DNA of 64,000 nucleotides from an uncultured Armatimonadetes bacterium. GTDB lineage: Bacteria; Armatimonadota; Hebobacteria; Hebobacterales; Hebobacteraceae. The notes beneath the pieces are model-generated. The model did no database searches. It saw nothing but the letters and a program-made list of their open reading frames with translations, and had not been told where the DNA came from. Location of the stretch: the NCBI GenBank assembly GCA_963716175.1, contig OY970296.1, positions 1,280,001-1,344,000 on the forward strand, written 5' to 3'. Below, piece by piece: positions 1 to 10,211 of this stretch. Each line of letters begins with the position of its first letter. The first letter of the stretch is position 1. The translations under genes were made by a program, and so were the position numbers.

Positions 1-325
1 GCAGGCGCGGGCTCCGCCGGAACTCGATGGCGGCGCTGATCACCCCCACCCAGGCCGCCACTGCAGGCCCGAAGATCAGAAGACAAGCGTAGTCCACGGC
101 AAAGCCGACCGTCGTGGTGGCCCCGCCGCGCCCTGGCAGGCGCACCGGGTACAGGACCATGAGCACGGTGAGGGCCAAGAAGAAACCGGCCTCCCAGGAC
201 ACGGAGACCGGCGGATGGGGACTCCAGCCTCGCCACCAGGCTAGGCTCAGCCACGCCAGAAGAACATAGCCTGAGACTCCGACCACGACCATGAACGGCG
301 AGTGTAGCTTCGATGGCTGCTGCAT
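1..325 (-). CDS. Membrane sensor protein, N-terminal part (runs off the left edge); resembles the membrane domain of HD-GYP/GGDEF signalling proteins
   Basis: ATG at 325; MQQPSKLHSPFMVVVGVSGYVLLAWLSLAWW...YPVRLPGRGGATTTVGFAVDYACLLIFGPAVAAWVG; several TM helices. Output domain is outside the window. Confidence 0.6.
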   Translation of the reverse strand, partial: MQQPSKLHSPFMVVVGVSGYVLLAWLSLAWWRGWSPHPPVSVSWEAGFFLALTVLMVLYPVRLPGRGGATTTVGFAVDYACLLIFGPAVAAWVGVISAAIEFRRSPRL

Positions 326-404
326 GGCTGCGACCTCTGCTCTGACGGTTGCCCAGATTAAGCGAGCCGAGGCCGTGTGCTAACAGCTCACGTCATGCGC
401 TAGC

Positions 405-482
405 TTACGGCCAACCAACACGAGCGCCGCCCGCCAACACGAGCGAGAGCAGCGCCAGCACAACCGAGATCCACTTGCCCAC
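405..482 (-). CDS. 25-aa small secreted/membrane peptide MGKWISVVLALLSLVLAGGARVGWP
   Basis: GTG start at 482 preceded by GGAGGTG (5-nt spacing), TAA at 405-407; basic N-terminus, hydrophobic core, polar Trp-containing tail; below the ORF-track size cut-off. Confidence 0.75.
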   Translation of the reverse strand: MGKWISVVLALLSLVLAGGARVGWP

Positions 483-654
483 AGGAACACCTCCAGGAGC
501 TAAAGCTCTGTCCGCCTTCCGCTACTTGGCAGACAGGCAACCGCTCCGCTGGGTGCTCACATCTTCCGTGGCCCCGGCTCGCGTCCGCTCAGTTGTCACA
601 CCCGATTGCTCTCCGTCTTCTCCTTTGACCGGAAGCGCCCGGCGCGCGCCGGAT

Positions 655-1323
655 CTAGGCAGAGAGCGCCGGCAGGCGTCGGTTCAGCGCGTCCAGCACG
701 GCCAGCGCCGCCGCCCTCCAGGGATCATCTCGCACTAGCGCCGACCCCAGCAACTCCTCTTCCTGCCTGCGCCCCAGCACGCGCACGGTGGCCATGACAC
801 AGGGCCGGCCGTTCACCTGGGATCGGGTGAAGTCGCGCAGCTCCAGGCCGGGGATGGCATCGAGGCTGGTGGCGCGCAAGAACTCCTCCACCGCCGCCAG
901 GCTGGCCCGGGCAACTAGCTGCTCCTGGTCGAGCTGGGAGCCGACGGGCATGGAGGCGGCGCCGGTGTAGCTGTCATCACCGCGGCCCACCGAGACTCGC
1001 GCCCGCGCGGTGGTGCGGTCAATGGAGTAATCAATGCTTAGGAACTTGAGACGAGCTTCCACCACCGGTTCGGCTGGGTTTGAGCCCCGGACCTGGGCGA
1101 TGCTGATCTTGCGGTGGTCTACCCGGGTCCCGAGGTCGGAGAAGAGAGCGGATTCGATATCACGTCCCAACTGCTTGGGATGCCGACTCTGGTCGGCGAC
1201 CACGTGGATCTCGATGATATCACCGCGGTTATCGGTCACCACCCGCGCCGACAGCACGCCCCGCAGGCGTGTGATGGTAGCCTCCGCATCCGCAACGGCA
1301 GCCCGATTCTGCAGGTCACCCAT
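655..1323 (-). CDS. Conserved hypothetical cytoplasmic protein
   Basis: ATG at 1323 after AGGGAGGG; motifs EIHVVA...PKQLGRDIESAL...VDHRKISIAQ and C-terminal A.LAVLDALNRRL. Confidence 0.8.
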   Translation of the reverse strand: MGDLQNRAAVADAEATITRLRGVLSARVVTDNRGDIIEIHVVADQSRHPKQLGRDIESALFSDLGTRVDHRKISIAQVRGSNPAEPVVEARLKFLSIDYSIDRTTARARVSVGRGDDSYTGAASMPVGSQLDQEQLVARASLAAVEEFLRATSLDAIPGLELRDFTRSQVNGRPCVMATVRVLGRRQEEELLGSALVRDDPWRAAALAVLDALNRRLPALSA

Positions 1324-1454
1324 GTGGCCAAGCCCTCCCTTAGCCGCGAGTCTGGGCCTACCCGACGCGAAACCGGATGCGTCCCGCAGGGGGCGACGGG
1401 CGTCATCACAGCTCAAGCTAGCAGCACGCAGGCTTTCCAGCCCGACCAACCGCG

Positions 1455-1483
1455 ATGATAGCAGGGACCGGGACGGGTGTCAA
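1455..1483 (-). promoter_or_regulatory. Sigma70-type promoter for the 655-1323 unit
   Basis: TTGACA-17nt-TATCAT with extended -10 TG on the minus strand. Confidence 0.7.
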
Positions 1484-1612
1484 GGACCGCTTGACCCCGC
1501 TGGCGGACAGCAAGGGTTTGGTGGGGCGCTGACCAGGCGGCTTGGGGCAAGCAGATCACGGGGGCGGGAAGAGGCCGGGCGCCGAGCCGTCAGGCCGGGT
1601 CGGCAGCCAGCC

Positions 1613-1641
1613 TTGACAGTCACCTGGCCGAATGCTATCCT
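1613..1641 (+). promoter_or_regulatory. Sigma70-type promoter upstream of the GNAT gene
   Basis: TTGACA-17nt-TATCCT with extended -10 TG. Confidence 0.65.
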
Positions 1642-1650
1642 CCGCCCCAC

Positions 1651-1748
1651 CATGAGTGCGATCAGCAGGCACCAGTTTGGTCTGACAGTCAGGGCCCGAC
1701 TCATGTCCGGGTGCGAACTCGCGTGCCCGCAACTGGTGCCTGCTGATC
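1651..1748 (+). other. Structured leader or small palindromic element
   Basis: Perfect 18-bp inverted repeat 1660-1677/1731-1748 enclosing two hairpins; CATGAGT (1651) complementary to ACTCATG (1699). Confidence 0.5.
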
Positions 1749-1871
1749 CGCCACCATAGTTTCCCAGCCTAGAGAGCCGATCAGGCGAGACCGCAGGCAG
1801 CTTTGGCAGGCCTGCGGTCTCTGGTTTCTGGGCAGGTCGCGGACCTGCCCTACTGGGAAGGAGGAAAGCTG

Positions 1872-2879
1872 ATGAGCGAGGCGCGAGTGCGGTTGAGGCC
1901 GATCACGGAGGCCGATCTGCCGGACTACGTGGTGTGGCTGAACGACCCGGAGGTGACGCAGTTCATGGCCGCGGAGGCTGGGAACTACACGCTCGAGAGA
2001 GAGCGGGAGTGGCTCGCGCGCATCTCTGACCCCGAGTGCCGTGAGCGCCACTGGGCTATCGAACTGGATGGGCGGCATATCGGCAACTGCGCGCTGATGC
2101 CTGACTCGGCCGGGCAGACCGCCGGGTTCGGGATCATGATCGGTGATAAGAGGGCCTGGAACAAGGGCTACGGCACGGCGGCCCTGCAGCAGGTGCTGCG
2201 GATCGGGTTCCAGGAGATGGGGCTGCACCGGATTCACCTGGAGGCCTTCAGCGGCAACGCCCGCGGCATCCGCTGCTATCAGAAGTGCGGATTCCGGCAT
2301 GAGGGAGTGGCGCGCAAAGCGCGGCTCAAGCGGGGCGAGTGGGTGAATGTGGTGAGGATGGCGATGCTGCGCGAGGAATGGGAGGCCTGTAGGGCGGGCG
2401 TTCCCACGCCCGCCGGGGCGGGGTTCGGTGACCCCGCCCTACAGCAGATCGCAATCCGCAGCTACCGCGGGGCTGACTATGAGCAGGCAATCGCTTTGTG
2501 GGAGGCGGTAGGCTTCAACGTGAGAGGGAGGGGCGATAGCAGAGAGGCGATTCAGTACAAGCTGGCCAACGACCGCGGGCCGTTTCTGGTGGCCGAGATG
2601 AGCGGACACGTGGTAGGCACGGCGATGGCAAGCTGGGACGGGCGGTGGGCCTGGGTGTATCGGCTAGCGATAGACTCGGATCACCGGTGCAGAGGGATCG
2701 GTCGCCGGTTGATGGTGGAGGTGGAGCGCCGACTGGCCGCACTCGGCACGCAGCGCATCCACCTGGTCACGGGAGAGGAGAACGGTGTCGCCAGGGCGTT
2801 CTATGAGAGTCTGGGCTATCAGCCGGGGGACGACCTGGTGGTGATGCGGAAGACCCTGCCTGTGGGCGCAAGCAGGTAG
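1872..2879 (+). CDS. Tandem GNAT acetyltransferase (RimJ/RimL-like domain plus a second GNAT domain)
   Basis: GGAGG RBS; two acetyl-CoA motifs WNKGYGT and RCRGIGRRL; N...Y.K.GF motif. Confidence 0.9.
   Translation: MSEARVRLRPITEADLPDYVVWLNDPEVTQFMAAEAGNYTLEREREWLARISDPECRERHWAIELDGRHIGNCALMPDSAGQTAGFGIMIGDKRAWNKGYGTAALQQVLRIGFQEMGLHRIHLEAFSGNARGIRCYQKCGFRHEGVARKARLKRGEWVNVVRMAMLREEWEACRAGVPTPAGAGFGDPALQQIAIRSYRGADYEQAIALWEAVGFNVRGRGDSREAIQYKLANDRGPFLVAEMSGHVVGTAMASWDGRWAWVYRLAIDSDHRCRGIGRRLMVEVERRLAALGTQRIHLVTGEENGVARAFYESLGYQPGDDLVVMRKTLPVGASR
2387..2444. repeat. Inverted pair of GTAG-type REP palindromes inside the GNAT gene
   Basis: CTGTAGGGCGGG...CCCGCCCTACAG terminal inversion, each half forming its own hairpin. 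Confidence 0.7.
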
Positions 2880-4513
2880 AACGCGGTGTCGCCGGCGCGG
2901 GCGGGCTGCCACCGGGATCGGTAGATGTGCCAAAGGTCGGAGACGGCAGCGATCTGCTGGCCGTAGCGCTGCAGGGTGATGGGGTCGAACTGGACCGCCT
3001 CCTGGAGGATGAAGACGCGGGCTTTCTGGGCGAGGGTGCGATCAATGGCCTGGCGCACCCGCTGCACGTAAGCCTGAGGATTGCCGGCCTCGCCATAGGC
3101 AGCAGTGAGGCTCAACACCCTGGCCCTGGTGAACCGCCTGACATACCCCGCCAGGATCCACTCGCGATCTATGATGATCAGGTCCCTGGGCCCGGCCAAG
3201 GCGGCGAGGGGCTCGACCTTGTGATAGTAGTAGTCGGTCTGCGGCGTCACCAGGAAGGTGATGCTGCCCAGGAGGTTCACCAGGAAGAGCAGCGCGGCCG
3301 GAACTGAGAGCGCGAGCAGAGTGCGCGTCCGCGACTGCTCTCCAGCGGTCACAAGCGCAATGAAGAGCAACCAGCAGCAGACAGACTGGGGGATCCAGAA
3401 CTCCAGGTTGGAGGGCTCCCAGAAGAAAAAGAAGGCGCTGTAGATCGCCAGCCAGGCGAGGGTGAGGGGCACCAGGCCGTGGGGCTCTCGCCAGAGCAGT
3501 CGCAGGTTGCGCAGTCGGGAGGCGAAGAGCCAGACCAGAATGACCCCCAGGAGGAGCGAGAGCGCGAGCAGGGCCAAGGCCGTCCTCGCCGAGAGGGAGT
3601 GTGTGACGAAGGCATCGTCCATCAGCCAGTGGCCGGCCAGCACCCGCTCCAGCGACGCTTTCGCCACCGGAATCGCCCACATGAAATGGAAACCGATGAT
3701 AGCGTGGCCGACACCGATCAGAGCCTTCACCAGGGTGGAGAGGGCAAGCCGCTGCCAGAGATCGGATTGGTGGGCATAGAGCGTGAGCCAGTACCAGGCC
3801 TGTGCCGAGGTGCGGAGATGTAAGACGACAAGCATGACCAGAGTGTAGGGCAGTACTACCAGGGGCAGGAAGACCAGGGCATAGGCGGCCCCTGCCCGCC
3901 AGGGCGAGGGCACCTGGCGGCGCCGAATCAGCAGGGCGAGCAGCACCACCGGGAGGAAGAGCAGGTGGGCCTGATGGAAGAGCACGGCCAGGCCCGTGGT
4001 GAGGCCCACCGCGGCGCATCGCCTGCTATCGAGGCGGTCGCCCGTGAGCAGATAGAGCGAGAGCAGGAGGAAGAAGAGGGGGATGACGTAAACCTCAACG
4101 CAGTCGCTGTAGAACCAGAGGCCGAACGAGAACGCGGGCAGGGCAGTGGCGAGTAGGGAGGCGCTGATGTTCAGCCGCAGGCGCGCCCGGAGCAGCAGGT
4201 AGAAGACGCAAAGGGTGAGCGCGCCGAACACGGAGTTGAGGAGAGAGACGATCACCGCGCTGTCCGCTCTGACGCCGAGAGCGCGCCAGAGGTCCAGCCA
4301 GATTGCAGCAGAGGCGTTGTAGAGCAGGTGGTGGGGGTGGAAGAGGTCGACGCGAGCGTCAATGGCGTTGATGTAGGCGATGCTGTCATGGGAGGCCGAG
4401 AGGTTGCGCGAGACGGTGGAGGCGTACAAGGCGAGTGACAGGAAGAACGGGAGCAACAGCTCGCGAATCGTAGGCAGCGGGGCTCTCGCGGAGGATGTAG
4501 CTTGCGCCTGCAT
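2819..4513 (-). CDS. Polytopic GT-C fold glycosyltransferase-like protein (DUF2723/GT39-like)
   Basis: About 11-13 TM helices; first loop SHDS.AY...HPHHLLY; VEVY motif. Confidence 0.7.
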   Translation of the reverse strand: MQAQATSSARAPLPTIRELLLPFFLSLALYASTVSRNLSASHDSIAYINAIDARVDLFHPHHLLYNASAAIWLDLWRALGVRADSAVIVSLLNSVFGALTLCVFYLLLRARLRLNISASLLATALPAFSFGLWFYSDCVEVYVIPLFFLLLSLYLLTGDRLDSRRCAAVGLTTGLAVLFHQAHLLFLPVVLLALLIRRRQVPSPWRAGAAYALVFLPLVVLPYTLVMLVVLHLRTSAQAWYWLTLYAHQSDLWQRLALSTLVKALIGVGHAIIGFHFMWAIPVAKASLERVLAGHWLMDDAFVTHSLSARTALALLALSLLLGVILVWLFASRLRNLRLLWREPHGLVPLTLAWLAIYSAFFFFWEPSNLEFWIPQSVCCWLLFIALVTAGEQSRTRTLLALSVPAALLFLVNLLGSITFLVTPQTDYYYHKVEPLAALAGPRDLIIIDREWILAGYVRRFTRARVLSLTAAYGEAGNPQAYVQRVRQAIDRTLAQKARVFILQEAVQFDPITLQRYGQQIAAVSDLWHIYRSRWQPARAGDTAFYLLAPTGRVFRITTRSSPG

Positions 4514-4639
4514 GGTGCGATGTGGGGCGCGGCCCGGCCGTCTGCGACAGCCACCAGCGGGCTTGCTCCGAACCCCGGCCCCTTAGGAGTAGTTCGGCGG
4601 TGGGCGCGCCTCCCCTGCTGGGTCGGCGCGCAGCGGTGC

Positions 4640-4665
4640 GGGCAGGAGCCAAGCTCCTGCCCAAC
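4640..4665. repeat. REP-like palindrome GGCAGGAG-N5-CTCCTGCCCAAC, copy 1
   Basis: Same hairpin at 17713, 18626 and 43815. Confidence 0.7.
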
Positions 4666-4706
4666 AAGCAGGTCAAGGTGTACGATGCGAAAGGTGAGAA
4701 GCGCCG

Positions 4707-5498
4707 ATGAGGCCCGACCTCACGCGTTACGAGGACCCCTGGACGGCCGAGGTTTATGACTACGAGGTAGGAGCATCCTGGGGCGAGCGGGATGTTGAGT
4801 TCTACCTGGGCCTGGGGCAGCAGAGCGCCGGGCCTGTGCTCGAGCTGGCCTGCGGGACCGGCCGGGTGGCGCTGCCTCTGGCCCGGGCTGGGGTGAAGAC
4901 AACCGGCCTGGATATCTCGCCGCACATGCTGGCGGCAGCGGAGCGCAAGGCGGCAGCGGAGGAGCCCGACGTTCGGGGCCGCCTTCGGCTGGTTCAGGGG
5001 GATATGAGCGCATTCGAATTGGGCCGGCGCTTCGGCCTCATCATCGTCCCCTTTCGCGCGTTCCAGGCATTGCTGGAGCGGGAGCAGCAGCGGGGGTGCT
5101 TGGTGTGCTGCGCGCGCCATCTGCATCCAGACGGGAGGCTGGTGATCAACGTGTTCAACCCGCTGCTGAGCCGCCTGGCGACGAAGGGCGAAGTGGAGGA
5201 GGAGCCGGATGAGTTTCCGGGGCCGGAGGGGGTGATGGTGCGCTGGAGCGCGCACACCAGCTACGACACGGCCGGGCAGAGACTGATCTCGCGCCAGCGC
5301 TACCAGTGCGCGGCGGCCGACGGCCAGGTCCAGGTGCGCGAGCACGTGCTGGAGCTGCGCTACATATTCCGGTTCGAGATGGAGTGGATGCTGGAGGCCT
5401 GCGGGTTCGCGGTGGAGGATCTCTATGGCAACTTCGATCGCAGCGCGTTCGCAGCCGACAGCCCAGAGATGATCTTCGTGGCGAGGAAGATGAGGTGA
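4707..5498 (+). CDS. Class I SAM-dependent methyltransferase
   Basis: VLELACGTGR, GLDISP.ML and GDM motifs. Confidence 0.9.
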   Translation: MRPDLTRYEDPWTAEVYDYEVGASWGERDVEFYLGLGQQSAGPVLELACGTGRVALPLARAGVKTTGLDISPHMLAAAERKAAAEEPDVRGRLRLVQGDMSAFELGRRFGLIIVPFRAFQALLEREQQRGCLVCCARHLHPDGRLVINVFNPLLSRLATKGEVEEEPDEFPGPEGVMVRWSAHTSYDTAGQRLISRQRYQCAAADGQVQVREHVLELRYIFRFEMEWMLEACGFAVEDLYGNFDRSAFAADSPEMIFVARKMR

Positions 5499-6950: not shown

Positions 6951-7746
6951 GCCAGGTAACCGGGCGGGGGGGATCGCTGAGCCCATCCGAGAGTCCTGCT
7001 GAGTTCCTGTTACCGCCGGCAAATAGATGCGCGAGGCGGGGATAGTACGGCCGGCTTCGGGCGGGGACCCTCGTTGTTCTCTGCCGCCGTTCTCCCTGGT
7101 AAGACACGAGTGCTGTAGTCATTGAGTACCCGCGCGGCTCCTGGCCTGCAGCAGAGCGTGCTACGCCTGGCCTCGCACTGAGGAAGGTCTGAGTCCGGGT
7201 TTTCGTCACGACAGCAGGCAGCCGCCTTCGGCGGCAGGTAGTCCTCTAGCAGCCACGCAGATTGCACCCATTGCAGCCCCCGGTGATGTGAAAGTCGTTT
7301 GCGGCCCTGGCGGTCGCGTGAGTGAGCGCGAGTCGGGCCAGGGGGGCCGGCCCGAGGGGTTACTGGAAGAGTCACCCACTAGACCAGCCGGCTCCCCGGC
7401 TCGGCTGAACCGGAGGGAGTGACGTCGGGTGCAGTGCACCCGTAAGGGCTGATGACGTACCAGGCCGAGAGGCGACACCGGCGCTGGAGCAGCGGCGCTG
7501 CGTCGGACCTGAGACCCAGCAGAGGAGGTGATGCAGTTGGGATTGGTGGCAGCGAAGGACCGAGGAGCCAGGACGAGCACTTGGAAGGGCCGTCACTGGG
7601 CACCCCCCGGTCCAGCTCTAGTATTGCCACATCTCTCCCCCTAAGTAAACCCCTGTGTGGTTCCACCCAACCCGCGCGTGGTGGCGCGGGGGCACACCCG
7701 GAGGCCTGGAGTCCGGGCAGACGGAGATGAAAAGGAGAGGTAGACA

Positions 7747-8448
7747 ATGCGTAAGGTGATGCTTCTTGCCCTCGTGGCCGCATTCGCGCTGAGCGCGGCG
7801 GCGGCCTTTGCCAATCCCGCCATCAACGATGGGCTGATCCCGGAGATTAATCCGGGTCACCTCGGAGGCGCGTCCGACAACTTCGTCGAGTTGTCTGGCG
7901 GCGGCTGGTGGGACGGCGTCTACGACTACGATGGGCCCAACCCCTGGATCAACATCGGCGGCAGCCTCGCGACCGAAGACATGAACGTGACCTGTGATGT
8001 CGAGCTGTACTGCTACGAGTCGCTGTCCGCGAACAACGTCTACTTCCACTTCAAGGGCGATTCGTATGCCCCGATGTCGGCCGTCATTGACGGTCTGATC
8101 AAGTCCAATAACGGCGAGTCCGTGGGGGTTGAACTACCCATAGGCAAGACTCTGCTCCAACTCGTCGGGACTACGGATGGCTGGGGCCGCGATGTGACTG
8201 CAGCCCCCGGCTACGATCCCATCCCGGTCACCTGGGAGCTGAGTGAAGACGGCGGCGCCAACTGGCGCACGGCCGACGACACTGGCATGGGGGCCAACGA
8301 GACTGTCTACGCCATGTGGTGGCTACTGGCGGCGGGCGACCCGTGCGACCATGCCTTCAAGTACCGGATCACGGTCTCACCCAAGTACCACCAGCCTGAT
8401 GGACATTACGTGCTGGATCCCAGGGTGGTTGTGGACCCGGTTCTGTAG
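7747..8448 (+). CDS. Secreted beta-rich protein, putative fimbrial/surface-fibre major subunit
   Basis: AAGGAGAGG RBS; Sec signal ending AFA; acidic and aromatic-rich; C-terminal QPDGHY.LDP strand. Confidence 0.7.
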   Translation: MRKVMLLALVAAFALSAAAAFANPAINDGLIPEINPGHLGGASDNFVELSGGGWWDGVYDYDGPNPWINIGGSLATEDMNVTCDVELYCYESLSANNVYFHFKGDSYAPMSAVIDGLIKSNNGESVGVELPIGKTLLQLVGTTDGWGRDVTAAPGYDPIPVTWELSEDGGANWRTADDTGMGANETVYAMWWLLAAGDPCDHAFKYRITVSPKYHQPDGHYVLDPRVVVDPVL

Positions 8449-8502
8449 CGGAGCCAGAACCTTCCCTGGCTAGGGGCTCACTCAGAGCCCACGGACTAGC
8501 GG

Positions 8503-8535
8503 CGGGGCGCGGGCTGCGCCGCAGCCCGCGCCCCG
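8503..8535 (+). terminator. Strong intercistronic hairpin
   Basis: Perfect 15-bp GC stem CGGGGCGCGGGCTGC/GCAGCCCGCGCCCCG, 3-nt loop; no U-tract. Confidence 0.55.
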
Positions 8536-8555
8536 GATTCCCTGGAGCAGCAAGG

Positions 8556-10211
8556 TTGCGGGCTACTCCTCCCTACAAGCGTGATCGGAACCTGATCGCC
8601 GGGCTAGCGGCGGCCTGTTTGCTGCTGGCGATTCGCCCGGCGCTGGCCCAGCTCACTCTGGTGCCGCCCATCCGGGAAGTGTCGCTGCGTCCTGGTGCCT
8701 CGGTTGTGTTCCCGGTGCAGATTTCGAACGCCGGGAAGGAGGCACTGACCTGTGACATGAGCGGAGAAGACATGGAGCTGAGCGCGGTTGGGCGGCCCCA
8801 GACCGCTACGGAGGGGTACACGCGGGGCTGCGGAGGGTGGGTGAGCTTCAAGCCGGCGCGGTTCGAGCTTGGGGCCGGTCAGTCACAGAAAGTCGCGTGC
8901 ACCTTGCGCGCACCGCGCGGTACCAGCGGCGGCTACTACGCTCGGCTTCGCTGCTTGGCTAGGCCGGGCCGAGGCGCTGATCCCATACGTGGCGGCGCCA
9001 TCACCTTCGAGTACCAGATGAGCTGTGCCCTGCTGGCCATTGTCACCTCCGGGCGGCTTCACAGCAACATCTCGGCGAAGTCCATCCAGCTCTCGACCAA
9101 CCCCGGGCGAGCGCGAGCAAGCGGCTCTCCGGCCTGGGCGGCGCGTGTCGCGGTGCGGAACACGGGGAATGTTCACGCCATGCTCGAGGGCAGAGTGAGT
9201 ATACTGGACGAGCATGGTCGGGCGATGGCCCGCGCACCACTCCTGGGGGGGCGCGGCTATGTCCTGGCCGGGGGTGAGCGGGTCTTCCAGAGCTCCGGAT
9301 CGGAGCATCTGCCTGACGGGGTATACGCGCTCGCGGCGTCACTCCATCTCGCCGGCCGCAGGTCTGCACCCACCATCGCCAGCGTCTCCTTCACCATCCT
9401 GAACGGCGAAGTCCACCAAGGTGAGCCGAGCCCGGAGTCCCGGGCCCTCCTTGCCAGCCTGAACCCGGGATTCTACCTGGAACGGCCCACGGTCGAATTC
9501 GCCCTCAGCCCTGGAGGTAAGCGGCGTCAACTCGTGCCTATCGTCAACCGCACCGATCAGCCGATCGAACTTGCCGCGGAGCTTCGAGAGTGGGAGCTTG
9601 ATGCCCAAGGCGAGCTGACCTTTCCCCCCGGGCGGCCGGGGCACGGTCGAAGCTGCGCCGGCTGGCTGAGGGTCGAACCACCCGCCGTCACGTTACCTCC
9701 GCGAGGTCGCGCGCGCGTCGCGCTGCAGATCACGATGCCAAAGCAAGCGCACGGGGAGTACTATGCCGCGGTCGGGTTCAAGCGGCCAGACCAGACGAAG
9801 TCGTCGGACTCCGCGGCGCTGATCGCCGGCAGCGTGCTGGTGACCGCACGCGCCCGCCGCACGGAGAAGCCTGAGATCCAGGTGGCAAGCTTCGCGTTGT
9901 CAAAGCAGACACCTCGAAGCACCACCTTCCGACTGAGCGTGCGGAATTGCGGCAATGTCGAGTGCTTTGCCGAGGGTCGGGTGGCTGTCCTGGATAGCCG
10001 ACGACGCGTGGTGGTGGAGAACCTCCAGTTTGGCAGTGAGCAGCAGACACTCCTGCCAAAGGGTGTCCGCACGTTCGAGATCACGTGGCCTGGAGCGCTA
10101 TCCCCGGGGCCTCACACCGCGGTGATCGCGTTGAACTACTATCGCGGCACCACGGCACTTGCTAAGGAGGTGAGCTTTGCAGTGCCAGCTTCTCCCAAGA
10201 GGCGGAGCTAG
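8556..10211 (+). CDS. Periplasmic protein with two tandem chaperone-like modules (PapD-N/DUF916-like plus Ig-like)
   Basis: Signal peptide; duplicated motifs C.GW....P....L.....V......P....G.YY and VRN.GNV....EGRV..LD. Confidence 0.7.
   Translation: MRATPPYKRDRNLIAGLAAACLLLAIRPALAQLTLVPPIREVSLRPGASVVFPVQISNAGKEALTCDMSGEDMELSAVGRPQTATEGYTRGCGGWVSFKPARFELGAGQSQKVACTLRAPRGTSGGYYARLRCLARPGRGADPIRGGAITFEYQMSCALLAIVTSGRLHSNISAKSIQLSTNPGRARASGSPAWAARVAVRNTGNVHAMLEGRVSILDEHGRAMARAPLLGGRGYVLAGGERVFQSSGSEHLPDGVYALAASLHLAGRRSAPTIASVSFTILNGEVHQGEPSPESRALLASLNPGFYLERPTVEFALSPGGKRRQLVPIVNRTDQPIELAAELREWELDAQGELTFPPGRPGHGRSCAGWLRVEPPAVTLPPRGRARVALQITMPKQAHGEYYAAVGFKRPDQTKSSDSAALIAGSVLVTARARRTEKPEIQVASFALSKQTPRSTTFRLSVRNCGNVECFAEGRVAVLDSRRRVVVENLQFGSEQQTLLPKGVRTFEITWPGALSPGPHTAVIALNYYRGTTALAKEVSFAVPASPKRRS

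Follow-up and report, generated by a model that had tools for sequence, protein, structure and literature searches.

Membrane-bound HD-GYP proteins with an N-terminal MASE9 domain include T. maritima TM1467 and S. venezuelae HdgA, whose gene sits in one operon with that of a second, degenerate membrane HD-GYP, HdgB (bioRxiv 10.1101/2021.11.05.467447; PMC6205966). No input signal is known for any MASE9 protein, and Galperin and Chou state that only one has been studied at all; they infer that MASE9 binds its ligand within the membrane, because its periplasmic loops are short and poorly conserved (bioRxiv 10.1101/2021.11.05.467447). Very small proteins encoded beside, or in the regulon of, a membrane sensor can tune its output, as MgrB and SafA do for the histidine kinase PhoQ in E. 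coli. DbfQ is reportedly a modulator of this kind for DbfRS in V. cholerae (PMC12714742). Tiny ORFs with a basic N-terminus and a hydrophobic body also encode peptide pheromones next to their receptor genes (SHP/Rgg, ComS/XIP, Phr, and the enterococcal sex pheromones cut from lipoprotein signal peptides), in which the C-terminal few residues are the active signal. In C. difficile, small membrane-associated proteins of about 57 to 60 residues, with four helices and a C-terminal hydrophobic helix, sit behind class I c-di-GMP riboswitches and affect sporulation (PMC13724677). We present here an operon from an uncultured Armatimonadetes bacterium (GCA_963716175.1, contig OY970296.1) in which a 25-residue microprotein gene, preceded by a structured RNA leader, lies between an uncharacterized cytoplasmic protein and a membrane HD-GYP protein. 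The published descriptions of MASE9-HD-GYP proteins that were consulted mention no upstream microprotein, no gene for such a cytoplasmic protein, and no RNA leader.

The window analyzed is a 64,000-nucleotide stretch of the contig (positions 1,280,001 to 1,344,000), and all features described are on its - strand. The original prediction, made from sequence alone, was of a peptide-signaling module comprising a promoter, a conserved protein, a 25-aa propeptide, and a membrane sensor. The promoter-like site and the three ORFs are all present at the stated coordinates, and the observation is confirmed. A sigma-70-like promoter candidate (TTGACA, 17 nt, TATCAT, with an upstream TG) lies at 1455-1483, about 125 nt upstream of the start codon of the first gene. 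It matches 11 of 12 consensus positions, and two such sites were found in window positions 1 to 2000, against 0.1 expected from shuffles. That one promoter drives all the genes, as was proposed, remains an inference from this consensus match; the same scan found no internal sigma-70 promoter between the first gene and the micro-ORF.

The first gene (655-1323, ATG start) encodes a 222-aa protein, p222, that is predicted to be soluble. A longer TTG-started frame (655-1449) is also open, but the orthologs all begin at the MADLQNR-type start. No Pfam or NCBIfam family was assigned, the best match being LeuA_dimer (PF08502; E 0.07, 13.5 bits, below the cutoff of 24.9), and a profile search against PDB sequences gave only a chance-level hit (RsfP, E 0.44). 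The ESM Atlas names its clusters "hypothetical protein." An AF2 model (pLDDT 91.1) has an N-terminal alpha-beta-beta-alpha-beta domain and a C-terminal domain of two beta-beta-beta-alpha units. By Foldseek, the C-terminal half resembles the regulatory domain of alpha-isopropylmalate synthase (LeuA) and citramalate synthase (3fig, 1sr9, and 3f6g, probability 1.0; TM 0.61 normalized to the LiCMS regulatory domain, 3f6g_B). In p222 this predicted domain stands alone and is not attached to a synthase. Proteins of about 600 aa that match the C-terminal half of p222 were first taken to be LeuA, but a Pfam search showed that the one in this genome, of 626 aa, has a C-terminal ROK domain, with the p222-like part at about residues 124 to 253. 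Orthologs of p222 were found in 16 genomes of 41 relatives searched. In a scan of one genome for each of 185,579 species, at least 600 stretches matched p222, and 590 of the 600 were confirmed.

The micro-ORF (405-482; GTG start, TAA stop at 405-407) is preceded by the Shine-Dalgarno (SD) sequence GGAGGTG at 488-494. Within this one G+C-rich window, a 25-codon ORF is not more than chance, since dozens of such frames are present, and the evidence that it is real is comparative. It is present in 16 of 16 orthologous loci. In the 14 of these ORFs with exactly 25 codons, 13, 6, and 22 of 25 columns vary at codon positions 1, 2, and 3, respectively, and pairwise codon differences are 786 synonymous against 421 nonsynonymous. 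Arg, Leu, and Ser codons switch between codon families while the residue is kept, a strong SD sits at the correct spacing in every lineage examined, and the frame stays open although the DNA has diverged between A+T-rich Bacillota and G+C-rich Armatimonadota. Given these data, an untranslated ORF whose conserved DNA encodes only RNA structure is very improbable, although a conserved structured RNA does lie immediately upstream. The peptide has no Pfam or NCBIfam family, and none of 8 family peptides looked up occurs in a collection of about 15 billion proteins. A search of RNA sequencing runs found none that contains the locus, one soil run containing a 0.07 share of the sampled words, and gives no evidence on expression.

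The membrane ORF starts at ATG 325 and runs off the left edge of the window, which holds its first 108 codons (1-325). The full gene of this protein, HD-GYP1 (G000:C1:1278970-1280325, in coordinates of this genome and contig), encodes 451 aa with at least 6 hydrophobic segments in the first ~230 residues, followed by an HD-GYP domain (HD_5, PF13487; E 3.7e-33, 115.1 bits, cutoff 27.2). It is followed off-window, with a 4-nt overlap, by a second membrane HD-GYP of 469 aa, HD-GYP2 (positions 7564-8973 of the extended locus, L002; HD_5 E 1.1e-29, 103.7 bits). Two adjacent membrane HD-GYP genes in one operon thus occur here as in Streptomyces, but here both copies keep the HHE...GYP motif (HHERMDGKGYP and HHERWDGLGYP), whereas HdgB is degenerate. 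Across 62 homologs, H262, H294, D295, K298, H324, H352, H353, E354, G360, and Y361 are invariant and P362 is nearly so (at least 90%), so that the metal and substrate motifs are intact; phosphodiesterase activity, on c-di-GMP or another cyclic dinucleotide, is inferred from sequence alone. The membrane domain is MASE9-like, scoring 23.0 bits (E 8.6e-5) against a gathering threshold of 24.3 for MASE9 (PF20972). Of four loci of the same module from other genomes (L128, L100, L109, and L084), the proteins of L128 and L100 score 25.5 and 31.3 and pass, while L109 and L084 show no hit at E<=0.001.

The elements are closely linked. A profile of the peptide alone hit 41 of 301 genomes of the phylum, and only this locus type was retrieved among its 30 best hits. 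All 14 loci among these that were not already known lie just downstream of a p222 homolog, and 12 of 14 have an HD-GYP confirmed by tblastn within the 1.5 kb examined downstream. The trio of p222, micro-ORF, and HD-GYP recurs in Armatimonadota, Bacillota, Actinomycetota, Sumerlaeota, and Gemmatimonadota. Of 80 cross-phylum loci examined from the species scan, 70 have an HD-GYP downstream on the same strand and 69 have a small hydrophobic ORF in between, of which 51 are canonical (E<=0.01, each with an SD) and 18 are variant forms. The continued presence of the micro-ORF beside the sensor, whose absence in homologous loci had been named beforehand as grounds for rejection, was therefore borne out, and the anticipated pattern (A/G)GA-x2-4-W is essentially the family signature. 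A partner other than the HD-GYP is unlikely but can be envisaged: the microprotein may tether p222 to the membrane, work with the DUF5317 membrane protein that recurs downstream of the HD-GYP in other phyla (L109, L128, and L084), or be a generic membrane-stress reporter. The link between p222 and the micro-ORF is at least as tight as that between the micro-ORF and the HD-GYP, and in a further locus, L110, p222, the RNA leader, and the micro-ORF persist although the HD-GYP is missing. However, L110 looks like a recent deletion, with a 92-aa DUF5317 remnant; DUF5317 is not present in the window's own operon; and the p222 paralogs of loci L136 and L140, which lack an HD-GYP, also lack the micro-ORF and the RNA leader.

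Directly upstream of the micro-ORF is a structured RNA leader (483-592). It contains AGCGR repeats at 585-589, 546-550, 541-545, and 519-523, the last in the loop of a hairpin with stem 528-536/508-516, and an anti-SD-like GCTCC at 496-500. RNAalifold on a plain MAFFT alignment predicted no pairs because the stems were out of register; a covariance model (core at 506-553) was therefore built from 9 in-register sequences and used for realignment. The model found 69 hits in 100 loci, 68 of which lie, by their coordinates, in the spacer downstream of p222. All 8 stem pairs show compensatory changes, and 95.7% of cells are paired, a value reached in 0 of 500 shuffles, against 34 to 49% when the partners are slid, although the alignment was fitted to the model. 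In its own genome the element has one hit (E 1.4e-7; next best, E 0.69), and searches of other genomes also placed it as a single copy at the module, with 14 of 15 hits in one search verified there. No Rfam 15 family matched the leader at E<=1 at this locus or at seven loci from other phyla. AGCGR occurs 3.65 times per spacer on the sense strand, 0.22 times on the antisense strand, and 0.46 times in shuffles. A G-quadruplex reading of the repeats was rejected, as many members have AGCGA, which lacks a GG. The minimum free energy (MFE) fold pairs part of the SD and the GTG start (z = -2.2), and in most of 11 leaders folded, SD bases pair with an upstream pyrimidine stretch, but single-sequence folds are weak evidence (z from -0.4 to -3.2). 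TRAP (GAG/UAG repeats), HutP (UAG repeats), and CsrA (GGA in hairpin loops) bind repeat leaders, and guanidine-II riboswitches carry tandem ACGR loops. As in these, a short motif is repeated here, 3 to 5 times, with one copy in a hairpin loop, directly upstream of an SD that can be sequestered; the repeat differs.

Because the leader may pair with the SD and the HD-GYP start mostly follows the micro-ORF stop by only 35 to 90 nt, the micro-ORF could instead be mainly a regulatory leader ORF whose translation, gated by the RNA leader and possibly slowed at the terminal Trp-Pro(-Pro-Pro)-stop, opens or closes the HD-GYP ribosome-binding site, the peptide having no function of its own. Many family members end in W-P or W-P-P-P before the stop, and such endings, as in TnaC and polyproline stalling, slow termination or elongation. 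We consider this unlikely, since purifying selection acts along the whole peptide and is strongest in the hydrophobic core rather than at the C-terminus, Bacillota and Actinomycetota members lack any terminal Pro, and the distance to the HD-GYP start varies from 5 to 170 nt.

The original interpretation, in which the peptide is essentially a signal peptide whose tail is released and sensed by a membrane protein with an off-window c-di-GMP output domain, is only partly supported. The HD-GYP output was predicted correctly, and the peptide has the n/h/c layout of a Sec signal peptide: K/R near the N-terminus, a hydrophobic run at positions 4 to 16, G, S, C, or A at position 18 (-3), and Ala at position 20 (-1) in 52 of 54 peptides. 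The hydrophobic stretch between the flanking basic residues is only about 16 to 17 residues and ends in small-x-Ala (GGA, SGA, or CGA, or ASA in the 43- to 47-aa Fimbriimonadales variant), exactly as in a cleavable signal peptide. The Fimbriimonadales variant has a textbook ...VASA|KR... site followed by a 23- to 27-residue hydrophilic tail. The 25-mer could be a Sec- or YidC-inserted pre-peptide that signal peptidase I cuts after Ala20 (AGGA|R) to release a 4- to 8-residue aromatic tail (here RVGWP) outside the cell as an autocrine or quorum signal; the tail keeps the pattern x-(F/W/L)-(K/R)-W, and the gene sits next to a membrane sensor. Cleavage and release remain possible, but nothing shows that the tail is released or sensed, and we regard this reading as doubtful. 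L11, L16, and A20 are at least 90% conserved, and entropy is 0.27 to 1.03 bits at positions 8, 11, 14, and 16 to 20, against 2.1 to 3.3 bits in the tail (positions 21 to 25), which is unusual for a mere export signal. The signature persists across five phyla rather than diversifying as Phr, SHP, and AIP pheromones usually do, some tails would be only 4 residues long, and the short, poorly conserved periplasmic loops reported for MASE9 also argue against it. The greater conservation of the hydrophobic core plus AGGA than of the tail fits a membrane-embedded partner of the MASE9 domain better than a diversifying secreted pheromone. No lipobox is present, as Cys occurs at position 18 in only 3 of 54 peptides and nowhere in the window's own. 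Pfam scans of the neighbors in the window, L109, L128, L084, and L100 found no RRNPP/Rgg-type TPR receptor, and no Opp permease, PptAB/Eep-type, or other processing or re-import gene is conserved in the neighborhoods annotated.

The data establish that the micro-ORF is a protein-coding gene under purifying selection, that it travels with the RNA leader, p222, and the HD-GYP across five phyla, that the HD-GYP keeps all of its catalytic and metal-binding motifs, and that the single-copy hairpin covaries. Beyond this, translation of the peptide, its location, and its partner are inferred. Our preferred but tentative explanation, to which we give a probability of roughly 45%, is that the peptide inserts with its N-terminus inside and its C-terminus outside, and that its conserved helix face (L8, L11, L14, L16, and A17-G18-G19-A20) packs against the MASE9 domain of the neighboring HD-GYP, where it would act as an accessory subunit or intramembrane ligand that sets the rate of c-di-GMP hydrolysis. 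A predicted complex of the peptide with residues 1 to 240 of HD-GYP1, run without controls and with a method whose calibration holds no protein under 30 residues, scored 0.06 and 0.18 against a mark of 0.32 and is no evidence either way. In this view, the amount of peptide is probably set at translation: pyrimidines next to the AGCGR block pair with the SD, and a factor binding the repeats would shift that pairing. That factor could be p222, whose C-terminal domain resembles an amino-acid-binding regulatory domain, although the link between p222 and the RNA rests only on adjacency and on weak dsRBD-like Foldseek hits (TM <= 0.3). Relative to MgrB and SafA, the proposed partner is an HD-GYP phosphodiesterase rather than a histidine kinase, and the peptide has only 24 to 29 residues and no soluble domain, is co-operonic and conserved across phyla, and has its own structured leader.

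Literature searches returned no paper on DUF5317 and one relevant paper on MASE9, and, judged from titles, abstract openings, and selected passages, none of these or of the papers on HD-GYP and small membrane proteins describes this module. The peptide is invisible to gene callers and marks a blind spot in annotation, and the locus adds a single-copy structured RNA with clear covariation and an uncharacterized protein family. Carriers named in sequence records include the cultured Thermosediminibacter litoriperuensis DSM 16647, Caloranaerobacter azorensis DSM 13643, and Geosporobacter subterraneus DSM 17957, which makes the module experimentally approachable. S. venezuelae HdgA-FLAG was built with only about 300 bp of upstream DNA and was among the least abundant of the tagged proteins (PMC6205966); if Streptomyces carries the same upstream elements, that construct may have lacked them. 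A bolder and unlikely reading, which the evidence does not rule out, is a phylum-spanning c-di-GMP control circuit in which p222 senses a metabolite and binds the AGCGR leader of its own operon mRNA, thereby gating translation of a microprotein that is the intramembrane ligand of MASE9 and switches the HD-GYP phosphodiesterase; this would give MASE9 its first identified ligand and define a new class of RNA-binding regulator. HD-GYP and MASE-type membrane sensors are abundant, and the conservation of this operon across at least five phyla points to an unknown way of controlling this second messenger, with the co-inherited 25-residue peptide a concrete candidate for the input of MASE9 or for an obligatory subunit.

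The features of the operon described here lie on the - strand. A promoter-like site, TTGACA-17-TATCAT with an upstream TG, is located at 1483-1455 and matches 11 of 12 positions; two such sites were found in window 1-2000, against 0.1 expected. A 222-aa ORF (p222) lies at 655-1323, about 125 nt downstream, and is followed by a 172-nt spacer, the sequence GGAGGTG at 488-494, and a GTG-started 25-codon ORF at 405-482, whose translation is exactly that given in the original prediction. After a further 79-nt spacer, an ORF starts at ATG 325 and runs off the window. The 10 kb to the left of the window (G000:C1:1280001-1344000 of the source contig) was examined. The truncated ORF encodes a 451-aa protein (HD-GYP1) with at least 6 hydrophobic segments in its first ~230 residues, a subthreshold MASE9 match (23.0 bits against a cutoff of 24.3), and a clear HD-GYP domain (HD_5, E 3.7e-33). 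A second membrane HD-GYP protein of 469 aa follows with a 4-nt overlap (HD_5, E 1.1e-29), and the operon ends against a convergent glutamate-dehydrogenase gene. The original prediction had guessed the off-window output domain, and this guess was right. In Streptomyces venezuelae, hdgA and hdgB are likewise adjacent 6TM-HD-GYP genes in one operon, and HdgA-FLAG, built with about 300 bp of upstream DNA, was among the least abundant of the tagged proteins (PMC6205966). On the other side of the operon, window 1803-2879 (+) encodes a divergently transcribed 358-aa protein with two GNAT acetyltransferase domains, with its own promoter-like site at 1613-1641 (+) (TTGACA-17-TATCCT, 10 of 12 matches), and a 564-aa highly hydrophobic ORF is listed at window 2819-4513 (-).

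Because 25-codon ORFs are everywhere in this G+C-rich window, the window alone proves nothing, and the comparative evidence is decisive. Full-length orthologs of p222 were found in 16 of the 41 related genomes searched, including the window's own, while six further genomes had only partial matches inside ~600-aa proteins. In all 16 loci, the spacer downstream of p222 holds a 25- to 31-codon ORF with the same signature and a strong Shine-Dalgarno sequence (SD). Among the 14 ORFs of exactly 25 codons, variable columns at codon positions 1, 2, and 3 number 13, 6, and 22 of 25, respectively; pairwise codon differences are 786 synonymous against 421 nonsynonymous, and Arg, Leu, and Ser switch between codon families while the residue is kept. 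That the ORF is not translated is considered very unlikely. A profile of the peptide alone has one significant hit in the window's own genome (E 1.8e-12, with the next at 0.85) and hit 41 of 301 genomes sampled from the phylum. Of the loci of the 30 best hits, 16 were already known and 14 were new. All 14 new loci have a p222 homolog just upstream (E <= 2e-33), and 12 have a tblastn match to HD-GYP1 downstream within the 1.5 kb examined, the other two (loci L059 and L060) having only a long unassigned open frame there. Several of the 11 weakest hits (E 0.001-0.009) fall inside long open frames and are probably chance matches to membrane segments.

A scan of one genome per species with the p222 alignment matched at least 600 stretches, of which 590 were confirmed by tblastn, and the best 80 loci were analyzed. 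These come from five groups: Armatimonadota, the window's phylum; Bacillota (Thermincola, Syntrophomonadaceae, Symbiobacterium, Thermaerobacter, Thermosediminibacter, Caloranaerobacter, Geosporobacter, and Haloimpatiens); Actinomycetota; Candidatus Sumerlaeota; and Gemmatimonadota. In 70 of the 80 loci, a homolog of HD-GYP1 follows on the same strand, and in most of them the match reaches into the membrane part of HD-GYP1. Of the other 10, six contigs end within about 150-830 nt, and L114, the Gemmatimonadota locus, is masked with N from right after the SD and GTG, where the micro-ORF is expected (about 4815-4920). Locus L110 has p222, the leader, and the micro-ORF but has lost the HD-GYP gene, and a 92-aa DUF5317 remnant and secA follow. 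Loci L136 and L140 (p222 match at about 3960-4700) carry p222 paralogs of 234 and 247 aa, each followed by a terminator-like hairpin and a DUF3866 gene, with no RNA leader, micro-ORF, or HD-GYP. In Bacillota and some Armatimonadota, a DUF5317 membrane protein follows the HD-GYP; in phyla other than the window's it follows directly (L109:6137-6715, L128:6141-6749, and L084:6945-7514), with secA after it in L109 and L110, whereas the window's own operon has a second membrane HD-GYP instead. That the peptide acts on another partner within the module is considered unlikely. In Geosporobacter subterraneus, a raiA RNA (L132:1187-1431, 169 bits) and a c-di-GMP-I riboswitch (L132:1639-1724, 71 bits) lie about 3 kb upstream of the module, in front of a 149-aa ORF.

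The canonical micro-ORF was found in 51 of the 80 loci at E <= 0.01, each 21-29 codons long with an SD. Among the remaining 29, 14 Fimbriimonadales-type loci (L077, L078, L088, L090, L093, L105, L108, L113, L116, L117, L118, L121, L122, and L127) carry a 43- to 47-codon variant (…SVASA KRVYYPHRWDDP…) about 80-130 nt after the p222 stop, three carry a 27-codon variant, one carries a 24-codon variant, and six showed nothing under the filter used; the other five, left out of this assessment, comprise two truncated loci, the masked locus, and the two paralogs. The micro-ORF stop lies mostly 35-90 nt before the HD-GYP start. None of 8 peptides looked up is present in a collection of about 15 billion predicted proteins, and neither Pfam nor NCBIfam has a family for the peptide.

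An alignment of 54 peptides shows one to three basic residues, a 10- to 13-residue hydrophobic run, (A/S)-G-G-A, and a 4- to 8-residue tail of the type x-(F/W/L)-(K/R/S)-W, often ending in Pro. The most conserved positions are A20 (52 of 54), L11 and L16 (49 of 54 each), G19, L14, G18, A17, and L8, with entropies of 0.27-1.03 bits, and the least conserved are tail positions 21-25, at 2.1-3.3 bits. The uncharged stretch between the flanking basic residues is a constant 16-17 residues. The peptide could be a cleavable signal peptide, with small residues at -3 and -1 and ASA|K in the long variant, or a short single-pass helix with an aromatic, basic interfacial cap. A lipoprotein signal is ruled out, as Cys occurs at the lipobox position in only 3 of 54. 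The best argument that the C terminus faces outward and could be cleaved is the Fimbriimonadales-type variant, with its ...SVASA|KR... junction and charged, YYPHRWDDP-containing tail; a cleaved peptide whose tail is a secreted signal remains possible but doubtful. We prefer the helix reading, and favor a function for the membrane-embedded part, because the hydrophobic core is conserved in sequence, not merely in hydrophobicity, across five phyla in which p222 itself is only 32-46% identical. This agrees with the inference of Galperin and Chou (bioRxiv 10.1101/2021.11.05.467447) that MASE9 binds its ligand inside the membrane. A predicted co-fold of the peptide with the membrane part of HD-GYP1 returned no verdict.

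The spacer between p222 and the micro-ORF contains an RNA leader (window 483-592, - strand), which goes beyond the original prediction and is conserved at the RNA level in every lineage. Its layout is (C)C-GAGCGRAGCG, 2-12 nt, a 6- to 9-bp stem whose loop presents nnUAGCGRnn, AG, and then the micro-ORF start codon 23-52 nt (median, 28) after the stem, with the SD within that stretch. In 63 unique spacers, AGCGR occurs 3.65 times per spacer on the sense strand, 0.22 times on the antisense strand, and 0.46 times in shuffles, and among the 61 leaders parsed, 48 have different stem sequences. A covariance model built from 9 in-register sequences found 69 matches in 100 loci, of which 68 lie in this spacer as judged by coordinates alone. 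On the resulting alignment, which was fitted to the model, all 8 pairs show changes on both sides, 95.7% of cells pair, against 34-49% with slid partners, and 0 of 500 shuffles reach the observed score. The rebuilt model finds one copy in the window's own genome, at window 506-553 (E 1.4e-7, with the next best at E 0.69), and one copy in each of 15 of 121 genomes sampled from the phylum. By comparison with the coordinates of the peptide-profile hits, and by inspection for two genomes (G048 and G088), 14 of the 15 lie at a module; the remaining one, in genome G036, has neither p222 nor HD-GYP nearby and is probably false. In five further genomes, the best hits in three are the module's own, and two divergent leaders fall below threshold. 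Rfam 15 has no match at E <= 1.

In the minimum-free-energy fold of the window's own leader, GGAGC of the repeat block pairs with GCUCC next to the SD, and further helices cover part of the SD and the GUG start (z = -2.2). In most of the ten other leaders folded, pyrimidines just 5′ of the repeat block or of the hairpin pair with the SD, while in loci L120 and L141 the 3′ strand of the hairpin pairs with the SD-to-AUG region instead; z-scores run from -0.4 to -3.2. We read the leader as a candidate translational switch on the micro-ORF, operated by whatever binds the AGCGR repeats, although this is inference. That the micro-ORF is purely a leader ORF is considered unlikely.

p222 has no family assignment in the libraries searched. 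Its AlphaFold2 model is confident (pLDDT, 91.1) and shows an N-terminal alpha-beta-beta-alpha-beta domain and a C-terminal pair of beta-beta-beta-alpha units. Foldseek matches the C-terminal part to the regulatory domain of Mycobacterium tuberculosis LeuA and of Leptospira citramalate synthase (prob 1.0; TM 0.61 by target) and also gives weak dsRBD-like and ring-building-motif hits at TM <= 0.3. The same domain type sits at about residues 124-253 of a 626-aa protein elsewhere in this genome (G000:C1:1431576-1433456; L146:1576-3456, +), whose C-terminal half is a ROK-family domain, and similar ~550- to 620-aa open frames occur in most related genomes. A ligand-binding regulatory role for p222 is therefore plausible, whereas RNA binding by p222 is speculation, based on its invariable position next to the leader.

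The predicted micro-ORF and its neighbors are confirmed as observed. The interpretation first placed on them is only partly supported. The comparative data show a conserved coding gene that recurs with p222, the leader, and an HD-GYP gene, whereas the membrane location of the peptide, its cleavage, its partner, and the action of the leader are inferred. Small proteins that tune membrane sensors are already known, but the partner class (HD-GYP/MASE9), the peptide family, the RNA motif, and p222 are not described in any library or paper we could search. Our tentative reading (probability, roughly 0.45) is that the microprotein is a membrane-embedded partner or ligand of the MASE9-HD-GYP protein, with peptide synthesis gated by the RNA leader.
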